The notes beneath the pieces were generated by a model. The model had not been told where the DNA came from, did no database searches, and saw only the letters and a program-made list of their open reading frames with translations. 64,000 nucleotides of DNA from Bacillota bacterium (GTDB lineage: Bacteria; Sysuimicrobiota; Sysuimicrobiia; Sysuimicrobiales; Segetimicrobiaceae). Where the stretch lies: assembly GCA_021324255.1 (NCBI GenBank), contig JAJPJL010000050.1, positions 2,836-66,835 on the forward strand, given 5' to 3'. Below, piece after piece: positions 9,891-33,872 of the stretch (the stretch's first letter is position 1; each line of letters begins with the position of its first letter). The position numbers and the translations under genes are program-made.

Positions 9891-9893
9891 AGG

Positions 9894-14681: not shown

Positions 14682-15214
14682 GCGTGGGGCGTCGCGCGGT
14701 TTTTCTCGACCGTGACGGCGTCCTCGTGGAGGAGATCGTCCGCGGGGGCCGTGCATACGCGCCCCTGCGCCTCGAGGACTTTCGCGTGGTCCCGCAGGCC
14801 GGCCGCCAGGTGGAGCGGCTCCGTGCGGCGGGGCTGACCTGCATCGTCGTGACGAATCAGCCGGACCTCGCACGCGGCGCGCTGCACCCGCACGCCCTTG
14901 AGCAAATGCATGCCCATCTGCGGACCGAGGTTCACGTGAGCGATATCTATGTATGCCCGCACGCCTCGACGGACGGGTGCGCTTGTCACAAGCCCAAGCC
15001 GGGCCTGCTGCGGGCCGCCGCGCGCAAACACGACATCGACCTTGCGCAATCGTTTCTGATCGGGGATCGGTGGCGGGACATCGGCGCGGGCCGCGCGGCC
15101 GGGTGCTTTTCGATCCTGCTGGACCGTTCCTACAGCGGCTGCGACGCCGCCGACGCGCGCGTCGGCGACCTTGGGGAAGCCGTCGACGTGATCCTCTCCC
15201 GCCTGACGGGGTGA
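14678..15214 (+). CDS. gmhB: D-glycero-D-manno-heptose 1,7-bisphosphate phosphatase (HAD family)
   Basis: AVFLDRDGVLVEE is the HAD motif I (DxDG). The zinc-binding CxH...CxC cluster (CPHASTDGCACHKPKPGLL) is characteristic of GmhB/histidinol-phosphatase-like HAD proteins. The ATGA overlap ties it to the upstream gene. Confidence 0.75.
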   Translation: MSVGRRAVFLDRDGVLVEEIVRGGRAYAPLRLEDFRVVPQAGRQVERLRAAGLTCIVVTNQPDLARGALHPHALEQMHAHLRTEVHVSDIYVCPHASTDGCACHKPKPGLLRAAARKHDIDLAQSFLIGDRWRDIGAGRAAGCFSILLDRSYSGCDAADARVGDLGEAVDVILSRLTG

Positions 15215-15217
15215 CAT

Positions 15218-15820
15218 ATGGAGTTTGTGCGCCGATATCTGAGCGACGTCAAGGCCATTGCGGACCGGCTCGACGCGGCGGCGATCGAGCGGTTGGTGGC
15301 GCAGATGGTCGACTTGCGCGACCGCGGCGGACGGCTCTTTTGCCTGGGTGTCGGAGGCGGGGCGGGACACGCCTCGCATGCGGTGAACGATTTTCGGAAG
15401 CTGGCGGGGATCGAGGCCTACTCGCCGTCCGACAATGTTTCCGAGATCACGGCGCGCATTAACGACGAGGGATGGGACACCTCCTACGCTAACTGGCTCA
15501 AGGCGAGCCGGTTAGGGCCTCGGGACGGGATCCTGGTGCTGTCCGTGGGCGGCGGCAATGTGGAAAAGGGCGTCAGCATCAACCTGGTGCGCGCGGTCGA
15601 GCTGGCCAAGGAGGTCGGCGCGCGGGTGTGGGGCATCGTGGGCCGCGATGGCGGCTTTACCGGCCAGGTTGCGGATGCGTGCGTGCTGGTCCCGAGTGTG
15701 AACCCGCAGACCGTCACGCCACACACGGAGGCCTTTCAGGCGGTCGTGTGGCATCTCATCGTTTCGCATCCGCGGCTGCGGGTGTCTTCGGCAAAGTGGG
15801 AATCGCTCGCGACGTCCTAG
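15218..15820 (+). CDS. gmhA: Phosphoheptose isomerase (SIS domain)
   Basis: GGRLFCLGVGGGAGHASHAVNDFRK...VLSVGGGN...GARVWGIVGRDGG matches the SIS-domain GmhA family. Length is ~200 aa. Confidence 0.8.
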   Translation: MEFVRRYLSDVKAIADRLDAAAIERLVAQMVDLRDRGGRLFCLGVGGGAGHASHAVNDFRKLAGIEAYSPSDNVSEITARINDEGWDTSYANWLKASRLGPRDGILVLSVGGGNVEKGVSINLVRAVELAKEVGARVWGIVGRDGGFTGQVADACVLVPSVNPQTVTPHTEAFQAVVWHLIVSHPRLRVSSAKWESLATS

Positions 15821-15831
15821 AGGGAGGGGCC

Positions 15832-16704
15832 ATGGGACGGATTGTCATCCTCGGCCACACCGGATTCATCGGCAGGGCGCTGCAACAGCACCTCCACGAT
15901 TCCGGGCGGGACGTCGTCGGCTTTTCATCGCGCACAGTTGACCTTCGACGGGCAGAGGCGCTGCGCCCGCTGGAGGATGTCATCGATCGGGACGCCATCG
16001 TGATCTTCGCGTCCACGATGACGCGCGAAAAGGGGGACACGCCGCAGACGCTTCTGGACAACGTTGCGATGGCCGCAAACCTGGGCGCGTTCGTCGAGCA
16101 ACATCCCCCCGCGCGGCTGATCTGCTTCAGTTCAGATGCGGTATATCCGATGCAAGACCGGGCGGTGAGCGAAGACACGCCCGTTGCGCCGGGCGGCACA
16201 TTCTACGCTATCGCTAAGTACGGGGCAGAGTGCGTGCTGCGGAAATCTGCGGAAGCAAAGGGGATCCCCTTGCTGGTGCTGAGGCCCACGGCCGTGTTTG
16301 GACCCGGCGACACGCACAACTCCTACGGACCCAACGCATTTCTCCGCGCGGCCGTACGTGACCGCACGGTCCGGATTTTTGGTCAGGGTGAGGAGCGCCG
16401 CGACCATCTGTACATCGGCGACCTCGTGCGCGCGGTGAAGGCTCTCGTCGACGCGGGCGTGGACGGGACATTCAATCTCGCTACCGGCGTGAGCCGATCC
16501 TTTGCCGACGTGGCCGGGGCGATCCGTCGCGTCGTACCGTTCGAGCTCGAGATCTTGTATCAACCGCGCCGGGCGCCCATCACGCACCGCGAGTTTGACG
16601 TCACGCGCCTTGTCCGGCAATTGCCGGGATTTCAATTTACCGGCTTCGACCAAGCGTTGCGCGAAACGTACGAGAGCTTCCGCGAGGTGGCGGAAGCTCG
16701 CTGA
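15832..16704 (+). CDS. NAD(P)-dependent epimerase/dehydratase/reductase (RmlD/GMER-like short form)
   Basis: MGRIVILGHTGFIGRAL...YAIAKYGAE (YxxxK). The 290-aa size fits a 4-reductase/3,5-epimerase-type SDR. ATG 15832 follows AGGGAGGGG. Confidence 0.7.
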   Translation: MGRIVILGHTGFIGRALQQHLHDSGRDVVGFSSRTVDLRRAEALRPLEDVIDRDAIVIFASTMTREKGDTPQTLLDNVAMAANLGAFVEQHPPARLICFSSDAVYPMQDRAVSEDTPVAPGGTFYAIAKYGAECVLRKSAEAKGIPLLVLRPTAVFGPGDTHNSYGPNAFLRAAVRDRTVRIFGQGEERRDHLYIGDLVRAVKALVDAGVDGTFNLATGVSRSFADVAGAIRRVVPFELEILYQPRRAPITHREFDVTRLVRQLPGFQFTGFDQALRETYESFREVAEAR

Positions 16705-16705
16705 C

Positions 16706-17359
16706 ATGCGCGAGGTCAACCTGCTCGACTCGTACCCGCGGAGCAAGCGGCCGATCCGCGAGCGCGAGGCCGCGAGGGCCGTGCAACGTGAGGTGGCCAA
16801 ACAGTTTGGACGGGAGTATTTCGACGGCGACCGGACGCAGGGATACGGCGGCTACCGCTACGACGGCCGCTGGGTCGCGGTGGCCCATCGAATGCGGGAG
16901 TACTACGGGCTCCGGGCCGGGCACCGCATCCTTGACGTGGGGTGTGCCAAGGGCTTTCTCCTCCATGATTTTCGTCGCGTGATCCCCGGCGTGGCGGTGG
17001 CCGGGCTCGACATCTCAGCCTATGCGCTTGACCATGCGATGGAAGACGTACGGCCGTTCCTGGTGCGGGGTACAGCGGACCGGCTGCCGTTTGCGGACCA
17101 GTCCTTCGACCTCGTGGTCTCGATCAATACCGTGCACAATCTGGATGCCGCGCGTTGCGCGGACGCGCTTCGCGAAATGGAGCGCGTGAGCCGCGCCCAC
17201 AAGTACGTCCAGGTGGATTCGTTTCTGACCGAGGAGCAGCGAGAAACCTTCGAGCGGTGGCAACTTACCGCCGTTACTTACTTCGATCCTGACGGGTGGC
17301 GACGGCTGTTTGCGGACAGCGGTTACACGGGTGACTACTACTGGACGATCACGGAATAG
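16706..17359 (+). CDS. Class I SAM-dependent methyltransferase
   Basis: HRILDVGCAKGFLLHDF is motif I, followed by DLVVSINTVHNL (motif II/III region). Length is ~217 aa. Confidence 0.75.
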   Translation: MREVNLLDSYPRSKRPIREREAARAVQREVAKQFGREYFDGDRTQGYGGYRYDGRWVAVAHRMREYYGLRAGHRILDVGCAKGFLLHDFRRVIPGVAVAGLDISAYALDHAMEDVRPFLVRGTADRLPFADQSFDLVVSINTVHNLDAARCADALREMERVSRAHKYVQVDSFLTEEQRETFERWQLTAVTYFDPDGWRRLFADSGYTGDYYWTITE

Positions 17360-17367
17360 CGTAGGAG

Positions 17368-18267
17368 TTGGCTGAGATGGCAATGCGAGCTGGCCACCAG
17401 TTTCAGTTGCTGTCAAGGATACTTGCTTGCCCATACTGCTGGGCCCCGCTTGCCGTCGATGGGGACGCCCTGCGATGCACTTCAACAGCTTGCGCGCGCA
17501 TGTTGCCGATTATGGACGATGTAATCCTAGTTGAAGATCGCAATCGGAATCGGTCATTCTTCGACGGCACGTTTGGACTCATGTCCGAAACAACACATCA
17601 ACCCGGGACGCGTAAAGTGTTCTACATGCCGCAAAGTAAGTGGTTGGAGGCCAGTTTGGACGAATATCTACGTCGTGGCCGCGGCGATGCCGTGCTTGTC
17701 GATGTAGGGTGTGGGCCGAGTGTGCCTTACACCCGCCGTCCACGAAATGTCTTGGTAGGAGTGGACCTATCTTACGAGGCGGTACGGCGGAATTACGACG
17801 TCGATGTGCGAGTGTACGGAGCGGCCAGTCATCTTCCGTTCGGTGACAGATCGATTGACGCAATCATTTGCTTCTACCTGTTGCACCATATCGTTGCAGA
17901 ATCGGTGGCCGAGGGCGAAAGGTGCATCCGAGAAGCCTTTGTCGAGTTCGGCCGCGTCCTTAAGCATGATGGTAGGATCTACGCGTTCGAGGTCATTCTC
18001 GGGCACCCGATGTTTCTTCTTCAACGCTTGGCATGGAATACGCTTCGGAACGTGTATCCGTCGTTGGACATGTTTTTTTGGTCAGATCGGGCTTTGCGCG
18101 AACTATCGCTCGAGTGTCTCCCGAGGGGAACCGAACTGCGCCGACACGTGTTCAAGGCATCGATGTGGGCGACATTCCCCTTCATCTTCACCCTACCGCG
18201 GTTGAAACTCCCGCGGTTTCTCTATCCCTTCGAGATCTGCGGATACGAGTGGCGTGTTTCCTGTTAG
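17368..18267 (+). CDS. Methyltransferase with N-terminal Trm112-like zinc-ribbon
   Basis: The N-terminus (LACPYCWAPL...LRCTSTACARMLPIMDDVILV) is a Trm112-like Cys4 ribbon. VLVDVGCGP is motif I of a class I methyltransferase. This gene marks the start of the lower-GC segment. Confidence 0.65.
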   Translation: MAEMAMRAGHQFQLLSRILACPYCWAPLAVDGDALRCTSTACARMLPIMDDVILVEDRNRNRSFFDGTFGLMSETTHQPGTRKVFYMPQSKWLEASLDEYLRRGRGDAVLVDVGCGPSVPYTRRPRNVLVGVDLSYEAVRRNYDVDVRVYGAASHLPFGDRSIDAIICFYLLHHIVAESVAEGERCIREAFVEFGRVLKHDGRIYAFEVILGHPMFLLQRLAWNTLRNVYPSLDMFFWSDRALRELSLECLPRGTELRRHVFKASMWATFPFIFTLPRLKLPRFLYPFEICGYEWRVSC

Positions 18268-18409
18268 CTCGAATCTTTCGCTGCGACGCGAAGCGCGGTT
18301 CGGGGCATAGTGACTGCATCCGTAGACATCCGTCCAAAACGACCCTGTCCGTACGCAGCAACCGAGGCGGGACGGCAGTCGAATCCGCACTCCAGGACGG
18401 TTAATTGAG

Positions 18410-20926
18410 TTGGAGTGGACCCGGGACCGCGATCACACCGCCGGGTTAAGTCAAGACAGGCACCTTACCGGCGCCTTGTGGAGGGTATCACATGCCAAAT
18501 ATCTCGGCCTGAGTCTCGTCATATACCTGGGGTTCGTTGGTGCACTTCTAGTTGCATCAAGCTGTCTTCCATACGTCACCGACAACAATGAGAGTTTTTC
18601 AATGTGGGTGCACGCCCACAACATGGTCCAGTTCGGTGTGTGGCACGCGGCCGGATTGTCGGACGAGGCATACAACCCGGAAGCGGCTGCTCACCCCTAT
18701 GTGTACACGCATGAGGGCAACTTCCCACGATTTTTCGTTTACGCGCTCATGCGGCTCGGCATCACCAGCGTGGAGTGGCAGATTGCGGTCTCCGCCGTGC
18801 TGATCGGGGGCGCGACGATCTACCTGTGCTTCCGCTTCTTCTCTCGCTTAGGGTCCGATCTCTTCGCGTTTCTCGTGTGCGCGGTGCTCGCGACGGACTA
18901 CCTCCTCTTCATGCAATGGGAGGTCAACACGTTTCGCGTGTGGCAAGGATTGTTGTTTTTCTTGAGCCTGGTATGCGTTCAAGGGCTCGGCGGCAGGAGG
19001 TCCCGCACGGCGGGAGTGTTGCTGTTTTTCACAGCGGTTGCGCTCTTCTATTTCGAGATCGTCTTTGCGCTGTTCACGGCGACGATGGCTGTGTGCTACG
19101 CGCTCCTCACGTTTTGGCGGCGTTGGCGCGCGCCTTTCGCGGCTACCGTGCTGCTGTGCGTGGGAGCGTTCGTCGCAGTTGGCGGCCTGTTTATCCAGAG
19201 CGCGGTGCACCTTGGATGGAAGGCGGCGCGAGACGACATCGGTCTGACGTTCCTGGCCCGCAATTTCTACCGTCAGACGTCTACGACATCAGTACCCCTG
19301 GAGTTCTATGTCGCGCATCACATTGTGTATTGGCTGGACCAACCAAACACCCAAGGCCACCTTCATCTGGATGCGTTTCTGAGTACGATTGGAGCCACGG
19401 CGCAAATTGATACGCCATACCTGTTGTTGCTTGCTTGTGTAATCGTAATGGCATGGTTGTGTCGCCTGGGAATGCGCTTCAGGTTCCTCCATGGCTTTCA
19501 TCAACAGTCCTCGATTAGAAGCCAAGGGCCCGGGATCGCGGTAAGCGCGGCGTCTTCGTGCTTGCGGTGGCGGGCTGCAGGGGTCGGCGCGTTGTTGTTG
19601 GGCTTGTCGTACGCGATCGTGAGCATGGCCGTTCGAGCGGGGAGTCCGCTCCAGGGCGATTCGCAGACCGCTCAATATACGCACATTCCCGGGTTCGTGG
19701 CGCACTGGCTGGCGTTCCCCACGTCGTCCATCTCGGTAGCGACGATCGCCCTGGCTGCGGTCATCGCCTTTGGCGCATTGTCGTACGAAGCGCCGCTGAC
19801 CACTTTGCGGTGGCGCCGCGGCACTATCTCAATTGACGCCCAGCGTCTGTTCGCGTGGAGTGCTGACACGGCAGCGAGGGTTTCGCTGCAATCTTGCGCC
19901 CTCGTGGGGCTGTTTCTCTACCTGGCCGGCCACTATGAGAGCTTCCACGCACGACTGTACGGTACGGACAAAGCTGCATTGTGGATGGGCGCCATTGCGG
20001 GGTACTTTCACGATCGTGTACTCCAGGCGGGATTGATCGGCGCTGGACTGCTTGGGATGTTGATAATTCTGGACGGCGGACGATCCTACCTTCCGCTTCA
20101 CGCCGATCGATCTCTTGCGGGGACGCTGCGTTATCTGATTGCGGGCGCTATGGCGTTTATGATCGTGTATATGATCTTTCCCGGCTACCTGTGGGCCGGC
20201 TACGTGAGCCGTTACGCTCCCTTGCCGGTTTTCCTCCTCGATGTCTGGATCGCTATGTTCTTTTACGTTCTAGTGGCCGTCGCATGGGACAGCGGCCGAG
20301 ATGTTCTGGGCATCGTACGCCGGCGCGTCCATGTTCGCAACACGGCAAGTTCGCGCGGAGCCATTGTGCGACCGCATTTGTTTGCCGTCACATCAGTGTT
20401 GTTGCTGATCTTTAGTCTTGCCTACTGGGCGCGCGTGCAGACGGTGTACTTCGAGGCACTTCCGCCAACAGACTATTTGTTTGTACGACAATTGGCCCGT
20501 GCACCCTACGTGGGTGCCACGGTGATCACCAACAATTATGCGGCTCCGATCGCATACTACACGAGAACGTGGGCCTACGAGGACCCCCTTGTGCAGGACG
20601 ATAGGTACATAGTGAAAGGCGGACAACCGATGCATGTTATCGCAGGATACTATCTCTGGGAAGCTGATCGTTTGCAGAATTCGGCGTATACTCGGCCGCG
20701 ATACTACGTGTGCATTACGAATCCAGACTTGAGTTTGGCCGCAGATCTCGTGGCGCTCCGGCGAGGCGAACGACTTGTCAGGTGTTCGGGCCAGCCCATC
20801 GTGCGGAATGCGATGGCGTCCATGGGACGGTTCCACAATCGCCTCATTGCCCGGGATCCCAGTCCGCGCGATCTTTGGGCGATTGTCGAGCTCGACACGC
20901 GAGTCCCGCTTACGCCACTACACTAA
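18410..20926 (+). CDS. Large polytopic membrane protein, family unrecognised (GT-C-like architecture), paralog A
   Basis: 838 aa with hydrophobic helices along ~650 aa, then a ~190-aa C-terminal soluble region. Conserved blocks shared with paralog B: PYVTDNNESFS, AHPYVYTHxGNFPRF, IYLCFxFFSxxGDxLxAFLVCAVxATDYxLFMxWE, YFEIVFAxFTA, GxLHLDAFLxT, IFPGYLxxGYxxRxAPLPVF, YWARxQxVYxExLPPT, YYTRxWAYxDP, YxWEADR, RPxYYxCxT. TTG start 18410. Confidence 0.6.
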   Translation: MEWTRDRDHTAGLSQDRHLTGALWRVSHAKYLGLSLVIYLGFVGALLVASSCLPYVTDNNESFSMWVHAHNMVQFGVWHAAGLSDEAYNPEAAAHPYVYTHEGNFPRFFVYALMRLGITSVEWQIAVSAVLIGGATIYLCFRFFSRLGSDLFAFLVCAVLATDYLLFMQWEVNTFRVWQGLLFFLSLVCVQGLGGRRSRTAGVLLFFTAVALFYFEIVFALFTATMAVCYALLTFWRRWRAPFAATVLLCVGAFVAVGGLFIQSAVHLGWKAARDDIGLTFLARNFYRQTSTTSVPLEFYVAHHIVYWLDQPNTQGHLHLDAFLSTIGATAQIDTPYLLLLACVIVMAWLCRLGMRFRFLHGFHQQSSIRSQGPGIAVSAASSCLRWRAAGVGALLLGLSYAIVSMAVRAGSPLQGDSQTAQYTHIPGFVAHWLAFPTSSISVATIALAAVIAFGALSYEAPLTTLRWRRGTISIDAQRLFAWSADTAARVSLQSCALVGLFLYLAGHYESFHARLYGTDKAALWMGAIAGYFHDRVLQAGLIGAGLLGMLIILDGGRSYLPLHADRSLAGTLRYLIAGAMAFMIVYMIFPGYLWAGYVSRYAPLPVFLLDVWIAMFFYVLVAVAWDSGRDVLGIVRRRVHVRNTASSRGAIVRPHLFAVTSVLLLIFSLAYWARVQTVYFEALPPTDYLFVRQLARAPYVGATVITNNYAAPIAYYTRTWAYEDPLVQDDRYIVKGGQPMHVIAGYYLWEADRLQNSAYTRPRYYVCITNPDLSLAADLVALRRGERLVRCSGQPIVRNAMASMGRFHNRLIARDPSPRDLWAIVELDTRVPLTPLH

Positions 20927-20994
20927 ATGGCATCGTACGGATTCGCGGAGGCTTGCAACCCTGAATCGGCCGCGCCCACGGCTTGGATAGCGGC

Positions 20995-23178
20995 ATGGCA
21001 AGCGCAGTAGGGAGCCAATCGAGGTTCGCTCAGCTTGACGGTCTTCGGTGGCTGGCCGCGCTTTCCGTCGTCGTGGCCCACTTTAACCCCGTCCCGCTTG
21101 CCCCGTCTCCCAACTTCTCCCACGGATTGTTTACTGCCGTTTCGCAATTGTCGCTGGCCAACCTCGGCGTCGTCTTCTTCTATGTGCTTTCGGCATTTCT
21201 GCTCACATTTCTCGCTGTGCGCGAACATGATCGAACCCGGCGTCTCGACACGCGGAAGTTTTATGCGCGTAGAGCGTTCCGCATTTGGCCGCTGTATTTC
21301 GTGATATTGGGTTTGGACGTGTGGCTGAGCAGGCCGGGATCCCTCTTTGCGGTCGCGTATTCGTTGGACCCTACCCAATGGGCTTGGGTCAAGACGCACC
21401 TCCCATACTTTGTCGGATTTGTGTCAAACTGGAGTCTCGCTCTTAATCATGTGTCGGGATACGTGGATCATTCATCTCCGCCATTTGCAATTCTATGGAG
21501 CATTGCCGTTGAGGAGCAATTCTATGTTCTCTTCCCGCTTTGTATCTATTTGTCGTTGCGCTCGCACGTTGGTCTTCGCCGCCTGATAATTGGAGTGTCT
21601 GTGGTTGGACTGCTGTTTCGACTCGCCTTCCGGTACGTGCCGGTCAATCCCGGCGATCTTGGCCCCGCAGGGGGGATGTACTATGCGACGCTGAGCTACT
21701 GTGATGTATTCCTCGTCGGTGGGATTGCGGGATGGATCGCTGCACGCGGTTCTCCGGAGGAGGCCGGATGGGTGCGGGCACTGCGCTGGCCAGGCGCCGG
21801 TCCTGTGATCATTTTGGTAGCCGCCGTCGTGAGTACGTTGTGGCGTGGACAACTTTGGTATCCTTACGCGATCTACAGCGTGCTCATATATCCGTTCACT
21901 GGCGCCGTTTTTGCCGCGATCATTCTGTGGACTATTGCAAATTCCGGAAGCGCGCCGAGTCGCTTGCTGCAGTGTGCGCCGATGGCTGCATTGGGCGTCA
22001 TATCGTATGGGATCTATCTGTGGCATCCTATTGCTGCCGCAATTGTAAGATTCAACCTCGGAGTTCTGGTGCCGGATAGACAAGCAAGCGTCGATTTCCT
22101 GGCAACGATGTCGTTTTGGGAGTATCTGGCGGCAACAATTTGCGGTGCAACCCTAACGTACATTACTGTAGAGCGACCCTTCTTGAATCTGAAGGAGCGG
22201 CTATGGTCAACGGAGCAACATGCGACCGCCAAAGCGGGGGCTCCACTATCTGCGACGTGGGCTTTGGGCGCCGGCATTGTGAGCGTGTTGCTCATAGTCG
22301 CCTGTGAAGTTGCAATTCGCGCACATCTCGGTGTGTTTGCCCAAACAAGGCTTGCATCATTGGCGCCCGTGACACTGAAGAGCATTCGTCCCAAGGATAC
22401 TGCCACGATGAGGGCACTCTTTTTTCCCACTACACAGCAAGCGGCGTTCGCGTACGGAACTCCATTTGGCGGAGCCGGAGCTGCTCACTCTGCAATGGCC
22501 ATTTTGATTGGCGATCCTGGTATCATGTTCTTGGTCCAATCCACGGGGCGTGTCGCCAAAGTGATGGTGCCGGACGGGCAGAAGATACTCATTCAAAACG
22601 TTGGCGAGTGGAATAGTTTGACCTCGAGCCTCAGTGGACTCTATGCGACGTCGCGACACGCAAGGTGGGTGATTGACGAGGGCGTTATGCATCCTGTGGT
22701 GCAGAACGATCTTGGGCCGGGTCGGGGCGATGGTATCCCTGGTCTTTGGGTCAGTCCGGGAAACGCGACGTACACCATCAAACGTATGCACGATCGAGGA
22801 GAGTCCTTTGTAAGGGTTACTGCGTTGAAATCCAGTTCGTACTTGTCGATCTCCGGGACGGCCCCGCTCAGCCGGCTTGATCATATGCCGGTCTCAATTC
22901 GCGGGCGGATACGGGCACACAGCAGACTCGGCCACATGTCCCTGTCCCTGTACGATGTCGTCGCCAAAGACGGACGCGCTATGGATCACCGGACGGAGAC
23001 GACGCCGAGGGATCCATGGACGACACTGACTGTTGGGACCGACCATTTTGTTGCCAATACAGGGAGTAACTACTCAATCGGCTTGGTCGGCGTGCAAGCG
23101 GGCGATTGGTTCGATGTACGAGAACTGGACGTCTTCGTAGGTCTCCTACCTTTGGATCCGGAGGTTGGGACGCCATGA
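20995..23178 (+). CDS. Acyltransferase family 3 (OafA/YrhL-like O-acyltransferase) with a ~350-aa C-terminal extracytoplasmic domain
   Basis: FAQLDGLRWLAALSVVVAHF...YVLSAFLLT...RRAFRIWPLYFVIL are hallmark AT3 segments over ~10 TM helices. The C-terminal half is Gly/Ser/Thr-rich, beta-like, and has no GDS(L) SGNH motif. Start is ATG 20995 (TTG 20983 also possible). Confidence 0.75.
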   Translation: MASAVGSQSRFAQLDGLRWLAALSVVVAHFNPVPLAPSPNFSHGLFTAVSQLSLANLGVVFFYVLSAFLLTFLAVREHDRTRRLDTRKFYARRAFRIWPLYFVILGLDVWLSRPGSLFAVAYSLDPTQWAWVKTHLPYFVGFVSNWSLALNHVSGYVDHSSPPFAILWSIAVEEQFYVLFPLCIYLSLRSHVGLRRLIIGVSVVGLLFRLAFRYVPVNPGDLGPAGGMYYATLSYCDVFLVGGIAGWIAARGSPEEAGWVRALRWPGAGPVIILVAAVVSTLWRGQLWYPYAIYSVLIYPFTGAVFAAIILWTIANSGSAPSRLLQCAPMAALGVISYGIYLWHPIAAAIVRFNLGVLVPDRQASVDFLATMSFWEYLAATICGATLTYITVERPFLNLKERLWSTEQHATAKAGAPLSATWALGAGIVSVLLIVACEVAIRAHLGVFAQTRLASLAPVTLKSIRPKDTATMRALFFPTTQQAAFAYGTPFGGAGAAHSAMAILIGDPGIMFLVQSTGRVAKVMVPDGQKILIQNVGEWNSLTSSLSGLYATSRHARWVIDEGVMHPVVQNDLGPGRGDGIPGLWVSPGNATYTIKRMHDRGESFVRVTALKSSSYLSISGTAPLSRLDHMPVSIRGRIRAHSRLGHMSLSLYDVVAKDGRAMDHRTETTPRDPWTTLTVGTDHFVANTGSNYSIGLVGVQAGDWFDVRELDVFVGLLPLDPEVGTP

Positions 23179-23209
23179 CCGCCACCCGTGAGGTCCTATT
23201 GCGGTCACC

Positions 23210-23956
23210 CTAGCCGGGCGCACGCTGTGCTTGACCACCGCCTGTTGCTCGCGACTTGCGGGACAACCCACAGTTCAGTGGCGCAATTGCCGTAGAAATG
23301 CAGATCAGATTTGTCGCAAAACACTGTGGACCGAGTTGACGCAGCACGTTCTGGCGCGATGGAGGGAATAGGGTCAGAAATGTTCTGCGATCAAGAAGGT
23401 TCAGGTTATCAATCTCACTAAAGTATCCTAACCCTATGCGCTGTAGCACTTCTCGGTAGGCGGCGCTTGGCAACCAGTGAAGCAACGGCAACATAGTGTG
23501 CACGTCTAGGGGAAACCACTTGTTCGGCGTGGTAAACACCACGCAGCGACAGACACGGCACACTTCATGAACTAAGCGTGCCTGCTGTTCGCTGGTGCCT
23601 GCGTGCTCCACAACGGCATTACAGATTCCGCAATCGAAATACAGATCCGGGAGTGGAATGTCTCGAAGATCGGCTTCTAGAAAGGTCAACCCGGGAAACT
23701 CGTCGGGCAGCCAATGCGCCCCTTCGCTTGCCCGCGCGATGGCGGTGAGGTTCCTACGATACGGATACATCGCTTCGAAGAAATAGTGGGCGGGGTGCGA
23801 ACGGTGTCCCGACACCCCGAAATCAGCGACTAGCGAGTTTGAGTTCGGGTTGCATTCCTGCATGAAGATCTCGAAGATCCTGCGGCGGGCGCGCAGCGCG
23901 AGGCCATCTCGGACTTTATTCAGGATGCCGAGATTGGTGGTGTAGGTTAACGGCAT
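23210..23956 (-). CDS. Putative class I SAM-dependent methyltransferase
   Basis: SLVADFGVSG is motif I-like, DCGICNAVVEHAG is post-II-like, and VFTTPNKWFP is typical of the Methyltransf_11/23 region. Lower-GC codon usage. Start is ATG 23956 (MPLTYTT); TTG 24010 is the alternative. Confidence 0.5.
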   Translation of the reverse strand: MPLTYTTNLGILNKVRDGLALRARRRIFEIFMQECNPNSNSLVADFGVSGHRSHPAHYFFEAMYPYRRNLTAIARASEGAHWLPDEFPGLTFLEADLRDIPLPDLYFDCGICNAVVEHAGTSEQQARLVHEVCRVCRCVVFTTPNKWFPLDVHTMLPLLHWLPSAAYREVLQRIGLGYFSEIDNLNLLDRRTFLTLFPPSRQNVLRQLGPQCFATNLICISTAIAPLNCGLSRKSRATGGGQAQRAPG

Positions 23957-24012
23957 GGACGTCGCATTATCGCGAACACTCAAGACCGGCGCTGTGCCGA
24001 CAGTTCTCAATC

Positions 24013-24046
24013 GTAATACTTGTTCATGCGTAATACTTGTTCATGC
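24013..24046. repeat. Perfect 17-bp direct tandem duplication (GTAATACTTGTTCATGC x2)
   Basis: Read directly: positions 24013-24029 and 24030-24046 are identical. It lies in the divergent intergenic region between the minus-strand methyltransferase and paralog B. Confidence 0.9.
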
Positions 24047-24227
24047 AGTTGCCTCAAAGCCCTGCTTCACTGGCAGATCGGCGCTGAAAGGACGCACGGC
24101 TTGCGCACGGTCCATAGCGATCGGACGATAGCGCGTGGATCGGCGCCCTACCGCGAAACGTCGCCTCCGGATGTTCGGGCGCGGGCACTCGCCCTGCAGT
24201 GATCGGCAGCCAAACGGATTGCATCCA

Positions 24228-26702
24228 ATGACGATGAAGCTGCGGGGCAGTTTGCCCGACCGGCCGTGGTGGTTCGGAACGGCGTCCGCGCGCTACCTTG
24301 GGGCGAGCCTTGGTCTGTATGTTGGGCTGTTGTTCGCGCTTCTCATCTCATCGGGATTCGTCCCGTACGTTACCGATAACAATGAGAGCTTCTCCGCCGC
24401 TATCCATGCGCGGAACATGATGCGTTATGGGCTCGGCAACGCGATGGGACTGGCCGACGAGGCAACCGCAACTAGCCGGGCCGCCCACCCCTATGTGTAT
24501 ACGCACGGCGGCAATTTCCCGCGGTTTCCCGTGTACATACTTCTGCATCTCAGGGTCGCGCGAATCGAGTGGCAAATTGCTTTGCTATCGCTCGTTCTCG
24601 GATGCCTCACGATCTATCTGTGCTTCGAGTTTTTCTCAAAAATTGGCGACAGCTTGCTGGCGTTCCTGGTTTGTGCGGTGTTCGCGACTGACTATGTGCT
24701 GTTCATGGAATGGGAGGGCAGCACTTACCGCGTGTGGCACGGGTTGCTCTTTTTTGCAGGCTTGGTCAGCGTCCAGCGCATCGGGGGACAGCGACGAAAC
24801 GTAGCCGCCGCGTTGTTATTCGCGGCCGCCGCGATTATCGGCTATTTCGAGATCGTTTTCGCGGCGTTCACGGCCCTGACATGGTTCCTATATGCGTTAA
24901 TGGCGTATTGGCGGCAGAGGCGCACGGCTCTGAGGGTGGCGCTAACTTCGGCAGCCGGGATCGCAAGCGGACTCTGTACGCTGTTCGCGCAGAGCGTGGC
25001 GCTCTTCGGTTGGGCAACGGCGCTGCAGGATATACGGCTCACTTTTCTGTCGCGTAACTTCTCCCAGCAGTCCTTCACCCCGGCCGGGGTGCAACGTATG
25101 CTGGCGTTCTTTCAGCAACATCACATCGTCTTTTGGATCGACAATCCTGATACACGGGGCTACCTGCACCTTGATGCATTTCTTCGCACTGTGGGGACCG
25201 AGGTCTTGCAGATTCACACACCATTCTTCGTCTTGCTCACATGGATCATCACTGCGGCCTGGATGGTCAAGTTCGGTTGGCGCATTCGAGCGATGCGGGC
25301 GCGCACCAGATCGGCGACGTCGACATCCTACCAGCGGCGGCGGACGCTGCAAACGAAAGTGGCTGGCGCAACGACGTTCGTGGTCATCACCGTGATGGCC
25401 TATGTGGTGGTGAGTCTTGCGACCAACGATCCGAGTCGCATGCCCGTCGCGAGCTACGGTGGCCTCCCCGGTTTCCCAACGCAACTCTTCGCGCCGAGGA
25501 CGACCACAACGGTTGCGGCAGTGCTGCTGCTGTTGTGGGCAGTCTACAGGACCGCGGTACGCGCTTTCACCCGGCGCGTGGTGTTGCGTCGTCATCTCGG
25601 TTTTGTCCTCGTTGATGCGCGCCAGGCTCTGCAGGCGGCAATGGTCGCCGTGCGCCACATGAAAATTGCTGCGCGGGAACTCGTCCTCGCCGCGACTTTG
25701 CTTGCCGTGGTGGCGGGGTTCGAACTGAACTACTGGCAGTTCTTCAACATCGATTTCGCCGCCCTATGGCTGTGGGCGATTGAAGGGTTCTTCGGTCCGC
25801 CTCTCCTCGAGGCGGCAGTTGTTGGATTCATCGCGTTGGGCCTGTTGCTCGTGCTGCGCAGAGGGCGAAATCTGCTCAGAGCACACCACGACGCGGTGTT
25901 CGTCGGGGCGCTACGGTACCTCGCAGCGGGGACGATAGCGTTCGGAATCGTGTACGTGATTTTTCCCGGTTATCTCGCGAGCGGCTATTTGGTGCGCCAA
26001 GCGCCGCTTCCGGTGTTCGTCGTGGACGTGTGGGTCGCCCTGTTTTTCTATGCCCTGGTGAACATCGTAGTGGAGAGCGGGCGACGGGCCGGCGTACTTG
26101 CCGGTGATACGGCCGGCGGCGGAAGGCGCGTCGCCGTTGCCAGCCCGCGGTTCGTGTTTCTCCTCTCGACTGGTCTTCTGATATTCGGGTTGGCGTATTG
26201 GGCCAGGGCGCAGTACGTCTACGTCGAAACGCTTCCCCCCACCACCGTACAGGGCCTCCGCCGCGAACTCATGCGGCCCGAGTATGCCGGAGCGACCTTT
26301 ATCAGCAACAATTATCCAGGACTTGTTACCTACTATACTCGAGCGTGGGCCTATCCCGACCCCACATTCAACGATGACGTAGTTGTTATGCGGCGCGGCG
26401 TCCTTTCTGCAATCATCGGCGGACAGTACATTTGGGAAGCGGACCGCGACGTCAACGAAGCCTATGCGCGGCCCGAGTACTATCTGTGTCTGACGATGCC
26501 ATCGATGTACATGGCAAGAGATGTCGCGGGGCTGCCGCCGGGCGGCCATTTGTCGAACTGCCGGAGTGATCCTATCGTCGAGGATGCCGCCCAGCATGTC
26601 GGTCCATTCTTCAACGTGCTCGCGGCTGAGGACCCCGGCCGGCGAGGACTGTGGGCGATTGTGCGGCTGGATCCCGCGATGACGGTCGAGTCCTTGCACT
26701 GA
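24228..26702 (+). CDS. Large polytopic membrane protein, family unrecognised (GT-C-like architecture), paralog B
   Basis: About 55-60% identical to paralog A over the N-terminal half and shares the same motif blocks. Start is ATG 24228/24234 (MTMKLRG); the track ORF begins at 24135. Confidence 0.6.
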   Translation: MTMKLRGSLPDRPWWFGTASARYLGASLGLYVGLLFALLISSGFVPYVTDNNESFSAAIHARNMMRYGLGNAMGLADEATATSRAAHPYVYTHGGNFPRFPVYILLHLRVARIEWQIALLSLVLGCLTIYLCFEFFSKIGDSLLAFLVCAVFATDYVLFMEWEGSTYRVWHGLLFFAGLVSVQRIGGQRRNVAAALLFAAAAIIGYFEIVFAAFTALTWFLYALMAYWRQRRTALRVALTSAAGIASGLCTLFAQSVALFGWATALQDIRLTFLSRNFSQQSFTPAGVQRMLAFFQQHHIVFWIDNPDTRGYLHLDAFLRTVGTEVLQIHTPFFVLLTWIITAAWMVKFGWRIRAMRARTRSATSTSYQRRRTLQTKVAGATTFVVITVMAYVVVSLATNDPSRMPVASYGGLPGFPTQLFAPRTTTTVAAVLLLLWAVYRTAVRAFTRRVVLRRHLGFVLVDARQALQAAMVAVRHMKIAARELVLAATLLAVVAGFELNYWQFFNIDFAALWLWAIEGFFGPPLLEAAVVGFIALGLLLVLRRGRNLLRAHHDAVFVGALRYLAAGTIAFGIVYVIFPGYLASGYLVRQAPLPVFVVDVWVALFFYALVNIVVESGRRAGVLAGDTAGGGRRVAVASPRFVFLLSTGLLIFGLAYWARAQYVYVETLPPTTVQGLRRELMRPEYAGATFISNNYPGLVTYYTRAWAYPDPTFNDDVVVMRRGVLSAIIGGQYIWEADRDVNEAYARPEYYLCLTMPSMYMARDVAGLPPGGHLSNCRSDPIVEDAAQHVGPFFNVLAAEDPGRRGLWAIVRLDPAMTVESLH

Positions 26703-26818
26703 TAGCGGTGGTCATCCCGCTTCCCCCTGTCACGATGATGTCGTAGCGTGCCGAGCTTGAGTCGCGGGAGGCATCGCACACGGAGCCGTGGATGGCACGA
26801 TATATGAGGAGGGCGAGA

Positions 26819-27445
26819 ATGGGATCACGCGAATTCGACATTTTGGACTCTCGTCTTGCGCGCGCGGACGCGCGGCTTCGTTCCATGTCGATCGCTTGGC
26901 TCGGAACGATGGTCGCCTTGATTGTCCTTGCCGTCACGATGGGACATGCCCACTCTCAGCCCGCACGGGTGACGGCGAGAGAGCTGCAGATCGTCGATTC
27001 GTCGGGGCGGACGCGGCTCGCGTTGTACGCGGCTCCCGACGGCACGCCCCGCGTGGTGCTAACGGGACGTGGTGGTATCCCTCGCGTGACGATCGGTGTC
27101 GGCTCGGACGGTGAGGCACGTCTCGGCCTCTACGATGCGAAGGGGCACCCGCGCGCGGACGTCGGCGTGGAGCGTGACGGAGCTCCTTCGATACGGTTGC
27201 TCGACGCAGACCGCAGGGCCCGGTTGGAGATCGGCACGGCCTCGGATGGAGCAGCTTGGGTGCGGTTTCTCGATGCCAGCGGGACCCTGCGGACAACACT
27301 CGATGCCGCGAGCATGGGAGCGTCGGAAATGGTGCTATATGACGCGGATGGGAGACGGCGTGTCGGCCTCGATGTGGCGCGCGACGGCTCACCGCGGATT
27401 GTCGTCACGGACGCGCATGGTCACGACGTGTTTTCGACGCCGTAG
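26819..27445 (+). CDS. Membrane-anchored repeat protein (about six 23-aa R-x-hydrophobic-x-DG-x-LxLxDAxG repeats)
   Basis: An N-terminal cytoplasmic tail and one TM helix (IAWLGTMVALIVLAVTM) are followed by repeated units (RVTARELQIVDSSGRTRLALYAAPDGTP / RVTIGVGSDGEARLGLYDAKGHP / RADVGVERDGAPSIRLLDADRRA / RLEIGTASDGAAWVRFLDASGTL / RTTLDAASMGASEMVLYDADGRR / RVGLDVARDGSPRIVVTDAHGHD). ATG 26819 follows GAGGAGGG. Confidence 0.5.
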   Translation: MGSREFDILDSRLARADARLRSMSIAWLGTMVALIVLAVTMGHAHSQPARVTARELQIVDSSGRTRLALYAAPDGTPRVVLTGRGGIPRVTIGVGSDGEARLGLYDAKGHPRADVGVERDGAPSIRLLDADRRARLEIGTASDGAAWVRFLDASGTLRTTLDAASMGASEMVLYDADGRRRVGLDVARDGSPRIVVTDAHGHDVFSTP

Positions 27446-27561
27446 CTATCGGCGGCGAGAACATATCTGCGCTCAATGCGAAAACCGGCACCGTGAAGGG
27501 CGTCGCGAAATATGTGTAGATCGCGCGAAACAGCTGGCTGCGGGTGCCGAAGGAGGATGCC

Positions 27562-27903
27562 GTGATCCTAGCTTTGGTGCTCTTGTCAATTGTGATGGGC
27601 GTTATCGGTCAGTTCTTACTGAAAATCGGGGCCAGCACGCCGGTACATTCGCCCGCCGACCTTTTGCGAGATCTTCTGCGGCCCACGACCGTGGCGGCGC
27701 TCGCGCTGTACGTGGGAGCGACGTGCCTCTGGATCACCGCGCTTTCCAGGGCTCCGCTCAGCTACGTGTACCCGTTGCTTGGGCTCAACTTCATTTTTGT
27801 CGTGGCAATTTCATCAATGATTTTGCATGAACCGGTGTCGATACACCGCTGGCTCGGCGTGGCCTTTGTAGCGATCGGGTTCATCCTCGTGGCAACGAGT
27901 TAG
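27562..27903 (+). CDS. Small 4-TM DMT/SMR-like membrane protein (ArnE/ArnF-like; putative polyprenyl-phosphate-sugar flippase subunit)
   Basis: About 113 aa with four hydrophobic helices (ILALVLLSIVMGVIGQFLLKIG...WLGVAFVAIGFILV). GTG 27562 follows a strong AAGGAGG. It lies immediately upstream of a GT-C-like gene. Confidence 0.6.
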   Translation: MILALVLLSIVMGVIGQFLLKIGASTPVHSPADLLRDLLRPTTVAALALYVGATCLWITALSRAPLSYVYPLLGLNFIFVVAISSMILHEPVSIHRWLGVAFVAIGFILVATS

Positions 27904-27916
27904 CACCGGGGACGAG

Positions 27917-29668
27917 TTGACGCTCGACGGCGCCGGCACTCCCCGGCGGGCAGTACCTACAGATGCGACGCTCGTGACAGAGCGATCTGACGTCGTGGAG
28001 ACCCGTGCGCCCGCACAAACGTGGCGCATCGCGCTGCCGGTGGCCCTCGGCTTGGCCGTGCTTGTCCTGGGGATGTATTTTTTTCGGCTGTCGGCTACGA
28101 ACGCGATCGGCGCTGATCAGGCAGGGTACCTGCTCTACGCCGACGACCTTCTTCGCGGGAACTGGGTGGTTCGAGGCTGGACGTTGCCCGAAGATCCATA
28201 CTGGGTACCCGATGGGTTTCTGTACATAGTCGGTGCGGCGGTTCGAGGCCTAGATCCGGTCATTCTGTACGCCGTGCCCACGCTCGTGTGCCTTGCGCTT
28301 GTCCTCGCGATGGCCGTGGCGGCGACGGTGAAGAGTGTGCCACGGATGGCCATCCCGTTTGTCGCGGTGGCCGCGGTGTTTCCCGTTCTCTTCCCGTCAC
28401 GACACATGGCCTCCGTAATTCTCATGGGGCCATTCCACACAGGCACGATCGTAGTCGCGCTCACCTCGATGGTCGCGCTGTACCTCGCCGGGCGTCCGGG
28501 GGCGCGACCCTCCCGTCGATGGACCTTGGCCGGCGCCACGCTGTTCCTCCTAACGTTGGGCAGGCTGGGCGACCCGTACATGACCATCCTGGCCGTCATT
28601 CCGATCATCCTCGTCTCGGGCGTGCGAGCGCTAGCGTGCAACGATGGAGCGGCACGGTCGTGGCACCTGTTGTCGATGAGCGTCGGCGCGGCATCCTGGC
28701 CCGGATCACTCGGGGCGCAGTGGTTGATGGGGCAACTGGGGGGCGGTACCGTTACGCCGTTCCATCCGACGATCATTCCATACGCAAAAGTCGGGGACGG
28801 TCTCGCCGCCCTGGGCCTCGCCCTGCTCAACCTGGTCGCCGGGAACGTTTTCGACCGCGTTGTCGACGCTTCTCTCATCCCCGCGCTCCTACGACTTGCC
28901 TATCTCGGGGGCGCCCTGCTGGTAACCTGGCTGATCTTGCGCGGGGAAATTCGGGCCGTCTCGCAGGGGCAGCCCGGGGACGACTGGCTCACGGCGGTCC
29001 TCGGCGTTGCCGCCTTGGTCTCCGTGCTTGGCAACATGCTCGGTACGTCAGGCGACGACATTCGTTATCGGGTGCCGCCGTTGGTGATGATGAGCGTTGC
29101 GTGCTCGCGGTGGCTAGGAATACGGTTCGGCTCATGGATTGCCGGCCGGCCGGTTCCCGCCGCTATTGTCGGTCTCGTATTGATCTATTTTGCCGTGGGG
29201 CCGCTCGGACAATATGTCGCCCCGCCGATAGTCGGCCACACGATTCTCCCGGCAGCAATGATGCGCGGTTCCGGTTCAGATCGCGATCTCGGCAGTTGGC
29301 TGGCGCGGCACGGGCTGACATATGGATACGGTGGCTACCCGGAGGCATCGATTGTGACTGTCGTCACGCACGGCGCCGTCAGCGTGCGCCCGGTCGCGTC
29401 CACGCGGGTGAGCCAGCCGGGCTTGGGGCCCTCGCATGTGCCGCCCGCCGATTGGCGTATCACGCCGTACCGGTGGTTGTCATGTGACGCCTGGTACGGA
29501 GCCGGCCACGACGCCAATTTCCTGGTGCTGAACCCCGCACCATCCTGGGACCGGGACGTAGGCGTCGACGTCAGGACGGCGGTCAAGACGTTTGGCCCGC
29601 CCGCGCACATCTACCGGCATGTCGGCAGGTACACGGTGCTCGTGTGGGACGGGCCGATTCATTTTTAA
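27917..29668 (+). CDS. GT-C-fold glycosyltransferase-like membrane protein (ArnT/PMT-like)
   Basis: An N-terminal polytopic region (10 or more helices) has an acidic first loop (GADQAGYLLYADDLLRG), followed by a ~150-aa C-terminal soluble domain. It is paired with an ArnE/F-like gene. Start is uncertain. Confidence 0.5.
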   Translation: MTLDGAGTPRRAVPTDATLVTERSDVVETRAPAQTWRIALPVALGLAVLVLGMYFFRLSATNAIGADQAGYLLYADDLLRGNWVVRGWTLPEDPYWVPDGFLYIVGAAVRGLDPVILYAVPTLVCLALVLAMAVAATVKSVPRMAIPFVAVAAVFPVLFPSRHMASVILMGPFHTGTIVVALTSMVALYLAGRPGARPSRRWTLAGATLFLLTLGRLGDPYMTILAVIPIILVSGVRALACNDGAARSWHLLSMSVGAASWPGSLGAQWLMGQLGGGTVTPFHPTIIPYAKVGDGLAALGLALLNLVAGNVFDRVVDASLIPALLRLAYLGGALLVTWLILRGEIRAVSQGQPGDDWLTAVLGVAALVSVLGNMLGTSGDDIRYRVPPLVMMSVACSRWLGIRFGSWIAGRPVPAAIVGLVLIYFAVGPLGQYVAPPIVGHTILPAAMMRGSGSDRDLGSWLARHGLTYGYGGYPEASIVTVVTHGAVSVRPVASTRVSQPGLGPSHVPPADWRITPYRWLSCDAWYGAGHDANFLVLNPAPSWDRDVGVDVRTAVKTFGPPAHIYRHVGRYTVLVWDGPIHF

Positions 29669-33752: not shown

Positions 33753-33872
33753 TATGACGGATTCGGGCGCGCCACGTCGCATCTCAGGGGCCGGGGACGA
33801 GTCGGTGGGTAACGGGATCTTCTCTCGAGGCGGGTCCGGCGTGGCCGCCAGGTCATGCCACGCGGGCTTCCG

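Follow-up and report, generated by a model that had tools for sequence, protein, structure and literature searches.

Gene content of the locus and the two paralogs

The window, i.e. the whole stretch of 64,000 nucleotides that was analysed, harbors a bacterial surface-polysaccharide cluster in which two paralogous genes, here called A and B, encode large polytopic membrane proteins (Table 1). Both open reading frames proposed by a first-pass annotation were found, and their products align over the full length with 43% identity and 58% positives in 823 columns (BLASTP, E = 0), values that do not allow the likeness to be ascribed to chance. All ten sequence motifs listed at that stage are present in A as well as in B, according to a regular-expression search. 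Concerning the gene models, the public call for A (P0007) is 774 aa long and starts at an internal ATG (18602), thereby dropping TM1 and the conserved PYVTDNNESFS motif, hence the longer ORF should be considered the better model; for B, an alternative GTG start at 24135 would yield 855 aa.

Table 1. Positions of the two paralogs and of neighbouring features in the window (TM, transmembrane).
Feature	Positions	Strand	Size	Remarks
Wzz-like chain-length regulator	186-1028	+		
Likely Wzy polymerase	1012-2529	+	505 aa	~10 TM helices and a large loop
Sugar-nucleotide cassette	4860-16704	+		includes the small GT2
Small GT2	8119-8886	+	~255 aa	no TM helix; candidate polyprenyl-phosphate sugar synthase, GtrB/ArnC/DPMS-like
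Class I SAM methyltransferase	16502-17359	+		Pfam; one of two directly upstream of A
Class I SAM methyltransferase	17368-18267	+		Pfam; one of two directly upstream of A
Paralog A	18410-20926	+	838 aa	TTG start; ~15 TM helices and a C-terminal outer-face domain (predicted)
AT3 (Acyl_transf_3) membrane O-acyltransferase	20983-23178	+	731 aa	PF01757, 5.8e-24
Class I SAM methyltransferase	23210-24010	-		PF08241, 8e-7; transcribed divergently from B
Paralog B	24228-26702	+	824 aa	from ATG; same family as A
ArnE/ArnF-like EamA-type protein	27544-27903	+	119 aa	4 TM helices; candidate flippase for a lipid-linked sugar
Orphan polytopic membrane protein	27917-29668	+	583 aa	conserved acidic first loop, C-terminal soluble domain
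GT4	29816-31054	+		
Wzx-like flippase	31051-32610	+		
GT4	32607-33752	+		
GT4	33855-35132	+		
Initiating phosphoglycosyl transferase (PGT)	37318-38037	+		

Hydropathy read with the positive-inside rule, together with AlphaFold2 secondary structure, predicts for both proteins about 15 TM helices with the N-terminus inside, in line with the 15 or more helices originally estimated, whereas the soluble C-terminal domain comprises ~165 aa and not the ~190 aa first given. This domain is predicted to lie outside the membrane (positive-inside rule, AlphaFold2 secondary structure), as is, by the positive-inside rule, the first loop with its TDNNE stretch.

The AT3 protein between the paralogs, which carries a C-terminal extension of ~330 aa of unassigned type, and all three surrounding SAM methyltransferases were recovered by Pfam as previously described. 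The cassette encodes a transaldolase, PDH-E1-like alpha and beta proteins, two epimerases/dehydratases, a reversed-order HldE-like nucleotidyltransferase-kinase, a GFO oxidoreductase, an NDP-sugar dehydrogenase, a GmhB-like HAD phosphatase, a GmhA-like SIS isomerase and an epimerase.

Downstream of B, the 119-aa protein matches ArnE over its full length (6.2e-14; 52.1 bits, NCBIfam cut-off 92) and also ArnF (2.3e-8; 34.5 bits, cut-off 99), and on these profile scores it is a relative, not an equivalog; the end-to-end alignment and the 4 TM helices are in keeping with the ArnE/ArnF family. The 583-aa orphan that directly follows is unannotated in Pfam and NCBIfam, has only 8 homologous clusters, and gave a negative hhalign result with the A/B family profile, whether it was entered alone or as a profile of 9 sequences. 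It is possibly a further GT-C-like enzyme and could be, instead of A or B, the true partner of the ArnE-like protein. As a general partner of the A/B family the ArnE-like gene was rejected, being kept in the closest relative only (1 of 49 loci). A downstream gene of ~220 aa was likewise discarded as a conserved partner, given that the 217-aa protein of the window is unrelated to the 219-aa ORF of locus L050. The latter ORF is a remnant of the family C-terminal domain.

A family with invariant residues on the predicted outer face

A and B belong to a real family that is missing from current domain libraries, with ~806 clusters at 50% identity that are thinly spread over at least 9 phyla, monoderm-type lineages included, and that retain the motifs observed in the window. 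Neither A nor B was matched in Pfam or NCBIfam at E ≤ 0.1, and the family profile retrieved nothing from the complete set of PDB sequences at E ≤ 10, which agrees with the initial impression that the proteins fit no recognised family; a description of the family was not found in a literature search. Most genomic loci contain a single copy, and at 11 of the 49 a tandem array of at least two family or sister genes is present.

Residue conservation was read from an alignment of 37 family members (B numbering). Invariant or near-invariant on the predicted outer face of B are D50, E53, D77, E78, H87, H93, R99, D155, R168, E208, D268 and R590, and every invariant charged residue of the family is placed on this predicted face. 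The first external loop, which follows TM1 and consists of about 65 aa (residues 42-112) with two helices, harbors the near-invariant D50 and E53 together with the invariant D77, E78, H87, H93 and R99. Divergent sister paralogs, which have only the N-terminal module (~280 aa) in common with the family, still keep E53, D77, H87, H93, N96, R168 and D268, while E78 is lost. The putative active-site residues of A would be E61 and D85, the equivalents of E53 and D77 in B.

The C-terminal domain presents an invariant cysteine pair (C754/C778 in B), which fits an extracytoplasmic location. In one member (P0197) the family domain is fused to an AT3 acyltransferase, and some others show fn3-bearing C-terminal extensions, both of which suggest that the family acts on an external glycan.

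Predicted fold, candidate donor synthase and recurrent neighbours

The AlphaFold2 model of B (pLDDT 82.3, pTM 0.87) has a polytopic core that can be superposed on known GT-C enzymes, at only 8-13% identity, lending support to the GT-C-like architecture suggested in the first-pass annotation. The match lists include AftA, AftB, AftD, EmbA/B, oligosaccharyltransferases, PIG-U and GAB1, the last two having the GT-C fold yet not being known transferases. It should be noted that the GT-C assignment rests on predicted structure, since the links sought through Pfam, NCBIfam, PDB profiles and hhalign are all negative. None of the characterised families compared with A and B gave an HMM match at E ≤ 0.1, i.e. 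YfhO (PF09586), PMT_2 (PF13231), Emb/Aft and Wzy/O-antigen ligase (Pfam or NCBIfam), and hhalign probabilities were 0.1% against the window's own YfhO-like protein and 1.3% against a PMT_2-like neighbour (L054). Neither the two paralogs nor any of the 37 aligned members contain the WWD[YWF]G motif, and no STT3 match was obtained in Pfam.

The nature of the donor is suggested by the small GT2. A profile built from 11 of its orthologues aligns with GtrB (positions 12-164 to 21-174, 3.7e-18), ArnC (17-237 to 8-227, 1.7e-17) and DPMS (15-238 to 21-247, 3.4e-17), and only such polyprenyl-phosphate sugar synthases match the whole catalytic domain, alignments to other GT2 structures being limited to roughly the first 100-130 positions. 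A C-terminal TM anchor was looked for and a hydrophobic segment is absent; human DPM1, like some other synthase members, also has no anchor, so its lack is compatible with synthase function. In 21 of 49 genomes (~43%), specific homologues of this GT2 occur at most 10 kb from the family gene, often immediately upstream. Other neighbours recur less regularly: homologues of the methyltransferases at 16502-17359, 17368-18267 and 23210-24010 appear at 13, 7 and 3 of the 49 loci, respectively, and 7 of the 49 genomes have an AT3 homologue close to a family gene. The cassette gene order is repeated beside the family gene in L050, L051 and L056.

Among known systems, a close one is the Und-P-L-Ara4N pathway, composed of ArnT, ArnC and ArnE-ArnF. 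ArnT (GT83) shows 12% identity to B, has 13 TM helices instead of about 15 and different motifs, and acts on lipid A, whereas the acceptor of A and B is likely a polysaccharide; ArnC, moreover, bears two TM helices that the small GT2 of the window lacks. GtrA/B/C and the GT136-type system (Citrobacter ORF12/14/15; PMC11127046) combine a synthase for a lipid-phosphate sugar with a small flippase and a GT-C enzyme, which is also the logic proposed here. They further resemble the present case in being located in or near an O-antigen-type cluster, in the outer-face, post-assembly modification that is proposed for A and B, and in the co-occurrence of acyltransferases. However, A and B have no sequence relationship to GtrC families or GT136, the partner pathway is of a heptose-/octose-like type and not one for glucose or a pentofuranose, the GT2 synthase candidate has no TM helix, and the family gene is often found in 2-4 copies. 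Pmt1/2/4 (GT39) display 8-9% identity to B, which like A contains no PMT or MIR domains; unlike them, A and B sit in a bacterial polysaccharide cluster, and E78 is lost in the sister paralogs.

Proposed role and alternatives

GT-C enzymes fix the final surface structure of many bacterial glycans; O-antigen serotypes, lipid A modification and mycobacterial arabinan are examples. Families of this kind are still founded singly, as with GT136 in 2024 (PMC11127046), and three-component GT-C systems are an established route by which bacterial glycans acquire sugars outside the membrane (PMC11127046). We infer, with a probability of roughly 0.6, that A and B represent a new GT-C family which moves a sugar from a polyprenyl-phosphate donor to a glycan outside the membrane, in a manner similar to ArnC/ArnEF/ArnT. 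The transferred sugar is probably an unusual one, heptose- or octose-derived and methylated or branched. This reading upholds and extends the interpretation given in the first-pass annotation.

The proposed scheme is modelled on ArnC/ArnE-F/ArnT and GtrB/GtrA/GtrC. The cytoplasmic cassette would produce a nucleotide-activated unusual sugar, heptose/octose-derived and possibly C-branched and O-methylated, which the small GT2 would place on undecaprenyl phosphate and the ArnE/F-like protein would flip. A and B would then each add the sugar at a different position or acceptor of the glycan produced by Wzx/Wzy, or lengthen a short chain of it, and AT3 would O-acylate the glycan on the same face. 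The active site would be on the outer side, built by the first external loop (E53, D77, H87 and H93 of B), R168 and further outer-face loops, with the C-terminal alpha/beta domain above it. The scheme is weakened by the restriction of the ArnE-like gene to the closest relative, and by the small GT2, which accompanies fewer than half of the family genes and carries no membrane anchor.

Two other transferase-type readings appear unlikely, to a similar degree. A and B may be extracytoplasmic polymerases that work processively, as Emb, Aft or Mpt enzymes do, and use polyprenyl-phosphate donors to build the cassette sugar into a homopolymer or oligomer domain; one paralog would then serve as primer and the other as elongator. 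Such a role has the same fold and donor logic as the favored explanation, and the 15 TM helices followed by a C-terminal domain, the Aft and Emb proteins among the structural matches and the tandem copies, comparable to embCAB, are in its favor, but the data are equally compatible with single additions, a complete Wzx/Wzy/Wzz set for the main chain is already present in the window, and the family is single copy at most loci. In contrast to mycobacterial Emb/Aft (GT53, GT85, GT89 and related), A and B are not matched by Arabinose_trans or AftA of Pfam, a C-terminal domain of the carbohydrate-binding-module type was not detected in them, and the donor pathway is unrelated, there being no PRPP or DprE genes. 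Alternatively, as oligosaccharyltransferase- or ligase-like GT-C enzymes, A and B would not add single sugars but hand over a pre-assembled glycan as one block, with undecaprenyl diphosphate as the carrier and a protein, a lipid or the cell wall as the acceptor. The best matches of the C-terminal domain of B, weak ones, are indeed oligosaccharyltransferase C-terminal domains, which would point to a diphosphate-linked donor, and AglB/PglB/STT3 (GT66) are also represented among the GT-C fold matches; these, however, are set apart by the WWDYG motif, absent here, and a monophosphate donor is what the partner GT2 suggests.

It is less probable still that A and B are non-enzymatic GT-C-fold proteins, either scaffolds or transporters (PIG-U-like lipid-binding subunits, polysaccharide exporters), or else Wzy-type repeat-unit polymerases. 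PIG-U itself figures among the structural matches, but the acidic, histidine and arginine residues of the first external loop are invariant across phyla and persist in sister paralogs. A Wzy role can be set aside, since a separate Wzy-like gene adjoins Wzz, and since the top structural matches include no Wzy, WaaL or SEDS protein.

Returning to the favored transfer from a polyprenyl-phosphate donor, a narrower version must be regarded as tentative and on balance rather doubtful, namely that the family is a dedicated extracytoplasmic transferase or polymerase for C-branched, O-methylated heptose-/octose-derived sugars that are made by the cassette and delivered on undecaprenyl phosphate.

The candidate new family comprises several hundred clusters and has a clear motif signature, predicted catalytic residues and a putative donor synthase as recurrent partner. 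Its carriers include at least two that can be cultivated and are usable for tests, Polynucleobacter sp. IMCC 30228 and Skermanella aerolata KACC 11604. No principle is overturned by it, as the proposed mechanism is the established three-component scheme. If confirmed, thousands of environmental "hypothetical protein" calls would become annotatable, and the family would point to an uncharacterised glycan of unusual methylated or branched higher-carbon sugars. Were the higher-carbon-sugar reading true, no GT-C family and no lipid-monophosphate route for heptose/octose sugars would precede this one, and it would reveal an unrecognised type of surface glycan common to Chloroflexota, Bacillota, Planctomycetota, Verrucomicrobiota, Acidobacteriota and Proteobacteria.

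Paralogs A and B and the extent of their family

Two paralogous long open reading frames, A and B, are recovered by ORF calling as the first-pass annotation had claimed (see table); by BLASTP they are 43% identical (58% positives, 823 columns, E = 0), and each of the ten motifs quoted there is present in both. That annotation could not place them in any family it knew by motif, and profile searches agree, since neither has a Pfam or NCBIfam match at E ≤ 0.1. In the contig JBAIIF010000025.1 of GCA_037025025.1, which is 99.996% identical to the window, A is annotated as a 774-aa protein starting at an internal ATG at 18602. This call removes TM1 and the conserved PYVTDNNESFS first-loop motif, hence the public start is probably mis-called.

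A word-indexed search with B recovered 83 clusters at 90% identity, all named "hypothetical" and devoid of Pfam domains except for one fn3, and when 1.84 billion cluster representatives were searched exhaustively with an HMM, 806 proteins scored at E ≤ 1e-3, 443 of them at E ≤ 1e-30. Literature searches turned up no description of the A/B family. Scanning one genome per species gave 49 loci with family genes, the nearest in a Bacillota MAG (72% to B, 61% to A). The others are distributed over Chloroflexota, Planctomycetota (Gemmatales), Verrucomicrobiota/Opitutaceae, Acidobacteriota, Desulfobacterota/Thermodesulfobacteriota and the Alpha-, Beta- and Gammaproteobacteria, Legionellaceae among them and also the isolates Polynucleobacter sp. 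IMCC 30228 and Skermanella aerolata KACC 11604.

An alignment of 37 sequences (22-81% identity to B) contains 42 invariant columns, including, in B numbering, D77, E78, H87, H93, G95, N96, P98, R99, D155, Y156, W162, R168, D268, R276, Y582, Y587, R590, W707, Y709, D739, C754 and C778; P46, Y47, D50, N52, E53, S54, F55 and S56 are conserved to at least 90%. The motifs shared by A and B are therefore kept in homologues, and the earlier concern that they might not be falls away.

Several loci also contain divergent relatives, here called sister paralogs (E 1e-18 to 1e-50 against the A/B family HMM). What they have in common with the family is limited to the first ~280 residues, which argues that the conserved unit is an N-terminal module, predicted to comprise TM1, external loop 1 and the next TM helices, and that the A/B family belongs to a larger unannotated clade. 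E53, D77, H87, P88, H93, N96, R168 and D268 are retained in them; D50, E78 and D155 vary. Judging by conservation, E53 and D77 are the best candidates for catalysis or metal binding, and R168 for phosphate binding. Sister paralogs of 577-1003 aa, without Pfam domain, occur at loci L003/L054, L053, L023 and others.

At least two family or sister copies are found in 11 of the 49 loci. At L054 two family copies flank a weak PMT_2-like GT-C protein of 472 aa. Downstream of a single family gene in a related organism, L050 (12766-13425) and L002 (12652-13311) carry a 219-aa ORF, which includes a 35-residue stretch of the family C-terminal domain (hhalign probability 97%) and is probably the leftover of a lost second paralog.

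Topology and predicted fold

Hydropathy and the positive-inside rule predict ~15 TM helices, with the N-terminus on the cytoplasmic side, the 65-aa first loop (residues 46-110) outside, the K/R-rich loops 352-377, 448-479, 544-556 and 615-634 inside, and the final ~165 residues outside; the AlphaFold2 secondary structure of B is consistent with this. The helix number, acidic first loop and external C-terminal domain of the first-pass annotation are thus supported, the soluble region being ~165 aa and not ~190. Under the predicted topology all invariant charged residues lie at the outer face, and the invariant C754/C778 pair would suit an oxidising, extracytoplasmic site for the C-terminal domain.

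The 37-sequence alignment was used to model B with AlphaFold2 (mean pLDDT 82.3, pTM 0.87), and weakly modelled regions are restricted to loops at 366-453. Structural matches of this model include Pmt1 and Pmt2 (scores ~13) and AftD (12.6), followed, with scores to 10.1, by ALG3, ALG9, AftB, STT3B, DPY19, PimE, PglB and ALG6; below the GT-C set, scores drop to ~8, a level reached by unrelated helical repeats. A Foldseek search gave these families again (E from 2e-3 up to ~0.6, probability near 1 for the best). Sequence identity to the structural matches is 8-13%, and the family profile matches no PDB sequence at E ≤ 10. Hence the GT-C-like architecture suggested earlier is firm as far as a good predicted model allows, and a family-level match is absent. 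The N-terminal module would correspond to the conserved GT-C module.

Gene context and its recurrence

From its gene content, the 38 kb around A and B is a putative Wzx/Wzy-type polysaccharide cluster; the AT3 between the paralogs and the three methyltransferases around them were correctly recognised from the start.

Features of the window around A and B
Feature	Position	Strand	Remark
Wzz-like	186-1028
Likely Wzy	1012-2529		~10 TM, large loop
YfhO-like protein	2539-5154	-
Transaldolase	4860-5948
PDH-E1-like alpha	5815-6957
PDH-E1-like beta	7064-8098
Small GT2	~8119-8886
Two epimerases/dehydratases	after small GT2
HldE-like	10937-12472		reversed domain order
GFO oxidoreductase	after HldE-like
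NDP-sugar dehydrogenase	13329-14681
GmhB-like HAD phosphatase, GmhA-like SIS isomerase, then epimerase	after NDP-sugar dehydrogenase
Two methyltransferases	16502-17359, 17368-18267		upstream of A
A	18410-20926	+	838 aa, TTG start
AT3 acyltransferase	20983-23178	+	PF01757, 5.8e-24; between A and B
Methyltransferase	23210-24010	-	between A and B
17-nt tandem duplication	24013-24046
B	24135/24228-26702	+	824 aa counted from ATG
Single-pass repeat protein	26792-27445	+	217 aa
EamA protein (ArnE-like)	27544-27903		119 aa
Orphan membrane protein	27917-29668	+	583 aa
GT4, Wzx, GT4, GT4 in order	after 583-aa orphan
Toxin-antitoxin-like pair: PIN-domain protein, Pol-beta-type nucleotidyltransferase	35457-35882, 35888-36424	+, +	between last GT4 and initiating transferase
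Initiating phosphoglycosyl transferase	37318-38037

Window GC is 0.65-0.78 and dips to 0.56-0.62 over 16-28 kb; this block (16000-28000) holds methyltransferases, A, AT3, B and small unknown genes, and its composition may reflect lateral acquisition or membrane-protein content. Two exact tandem copies of GTAATACTTGTTCATGC lie in the divergent intergenic region that separates B from the minus-strand methyltransferase; they may mark a site of regulation or be a scar left by slippage. The external part of the 217-aa protein consists of short ~20-residue repeats (e.g. DGxPRxxLxDxxGRxR); no family match was found for it, and its conservation extends only to the closest relative (L001, 70%). The PIN and Pol-beta-type pair inside the cluster looks like a toxin-antitoxin-type insertion. 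Residues ~400-731 of the AT3 form a ~330-aa C-terminal extension without Pfam match; OafA-type proteins carry an SGNH domain C-terminal to AT3, whereas this extension is not an SGNH domain.

Within ~10 kb of the family gene (phmmer, E ≤ 1e-10; many contigs truncated), homologues of the small GT2 were found in 21 of the 49 loci, E1 beta in 16, E1 alpha in 15, methyltransferase 16502 in 13, GFO oxidoreductase and NDP-sugar dehydrogenase in 8 each, AT3 and HldE-like in 7 each, transaldolase in 5 and ArnE-like in 1, counts that are descriptive and stand without a comparison with unrelated polysaccharide loci. The association of the small GT2 is partial, and the ArnE-like gene is lineage-specific. 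The small GT2 lies directly upstream of the family gene at L044, L032, L029, L008 and L020. Pfam-annotated related metagenome contigs keep the order E1 beta, GT2, epimerase, epimerase, HldE, GFO, dehydrogenase, HAD, SIS, epimerase, MT, family gene. The conserved sugar cassette (4860-16704, +) recurs at L050, L051 and L056, rearranged in the latter. Distant Burkholderiales/Chloroflexota loci keep E1 alpha/beta, methyltransferases, GT2, Wzx-like or transaldolase genes, and their sugar genes differ. One family protein of 1656 aa (P0197) fuses an AT3 domain (18-388) to the family domain (434-1159); other members carry C-terminal fn3 domains.

Proposed activity, partners and alternatives

The small GT2 lacks TM helices. 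Its profile (window GT2 plus ten orthologues) aligns along most or the whole of the catalytic domain only with GtrB (3.7e-18), ArnC (1.7e-17, positions 17-237 to 8-227) and DPMS (3.4e-17, 15-238 to 21-247); with other GT2 structures the alignment stops after roughly the first 100-130 positions, which form the nucleotide-binding region. The 119-aa protein has 4 TM and its best NCBIfam matches are ArnE (6.2e-14, full length) and ArnF (2.3e-8), both under the curated cut-offs. By analogy, small GT2, ArnE-like protein and GT-C protein would together make up a three-part system resembling ArnC/ArnEF/ArnT or Gtr, following the general three-component GT-C scheme (PMC11127046). The cassette would make a nucleotide sugar, which the small GT2 would place onto undecaprenyl phosphate. 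In this lineage the ArnE-like protein would serve as the small flippase that brings the lipid-linked sugar to the outer face, where A and B would each move it to a glycan acceptor from the Wzx/Wzy machinery, and AT3 would then acylate the product. Methylation, since it depends on SAM, would have to be cytoplasmic.

The real partner of the ArnE-like gene may be the adjacent 583-aa orphan rather than A/B. This polytopic protein, encoded directly 3' of it, ends in a soluble domain, and its acidic first loop is conserved, homologues reading SDGAGxALQAWDMLHGNxLLRGW with D67 invariant. Pfam, NCBIfam and the PDB gave no match for the protein, its homologues amount to just 8 clusters among 5.8 billion, and it looks like a further GT-C-like enzyme.

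Concerning the sugar, its identity is only a lead. The cassette classes (transaldolase, isomerase, kinase, phosphatase, nucleotidyltransferase, epimerase, dehydrogenase, oxidoreductase) mirror those of the lincosamide GDP-octose route (LmbR/N/P/K/O/M/L/Z; PMC4351081, PMC12945683), and the E1 alpha/beta pair recalls AviB1/B2; these, like Pau11/12, are PDH-E1-like alpha/beta pairs for which attachment of two-carbon branches to sugars has been proposed (PMC4753412). In the HldE-like protein the nucleotidyltransferase precedes the kinase, opposite to the domain order of E. coli HldE. An ordinary heptose pathway with additional tailoring steps would agree with the data just as well.

By predicted fold and context, A/B would act like ArnT, PMT or GtrC-type GT-C transferases. 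The C-terminal domain matches speak for an OST-like or ligase-like en bloc transferase, a reading we consider rather improbable, and the tandem copies for a processive Emb/Mpt-like polymerase, to which we give a similarly small chance; sequence-based membership tests place A/B outside PMT_2, YfhO, STT3, Emb/Aft and Wzy. The structural matches also include PIG-U and GAB1, GT-C-fold subunits that are not known transferases; a non-enzymatic scaffold, or a Wzy role, is unlikely. On the predicted model, the most fitting description of A/B is a new sequence family in the GT-C fold class, in a known three-component logic. Such a family is no surprise in principle, given how incompletely GT-C diversity is known to have been sampled (PMC11127046). 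As a candidate for a new glycosyltransferase family, A/B are solid and testable, and they may also point to an uncharacterised glycan type.
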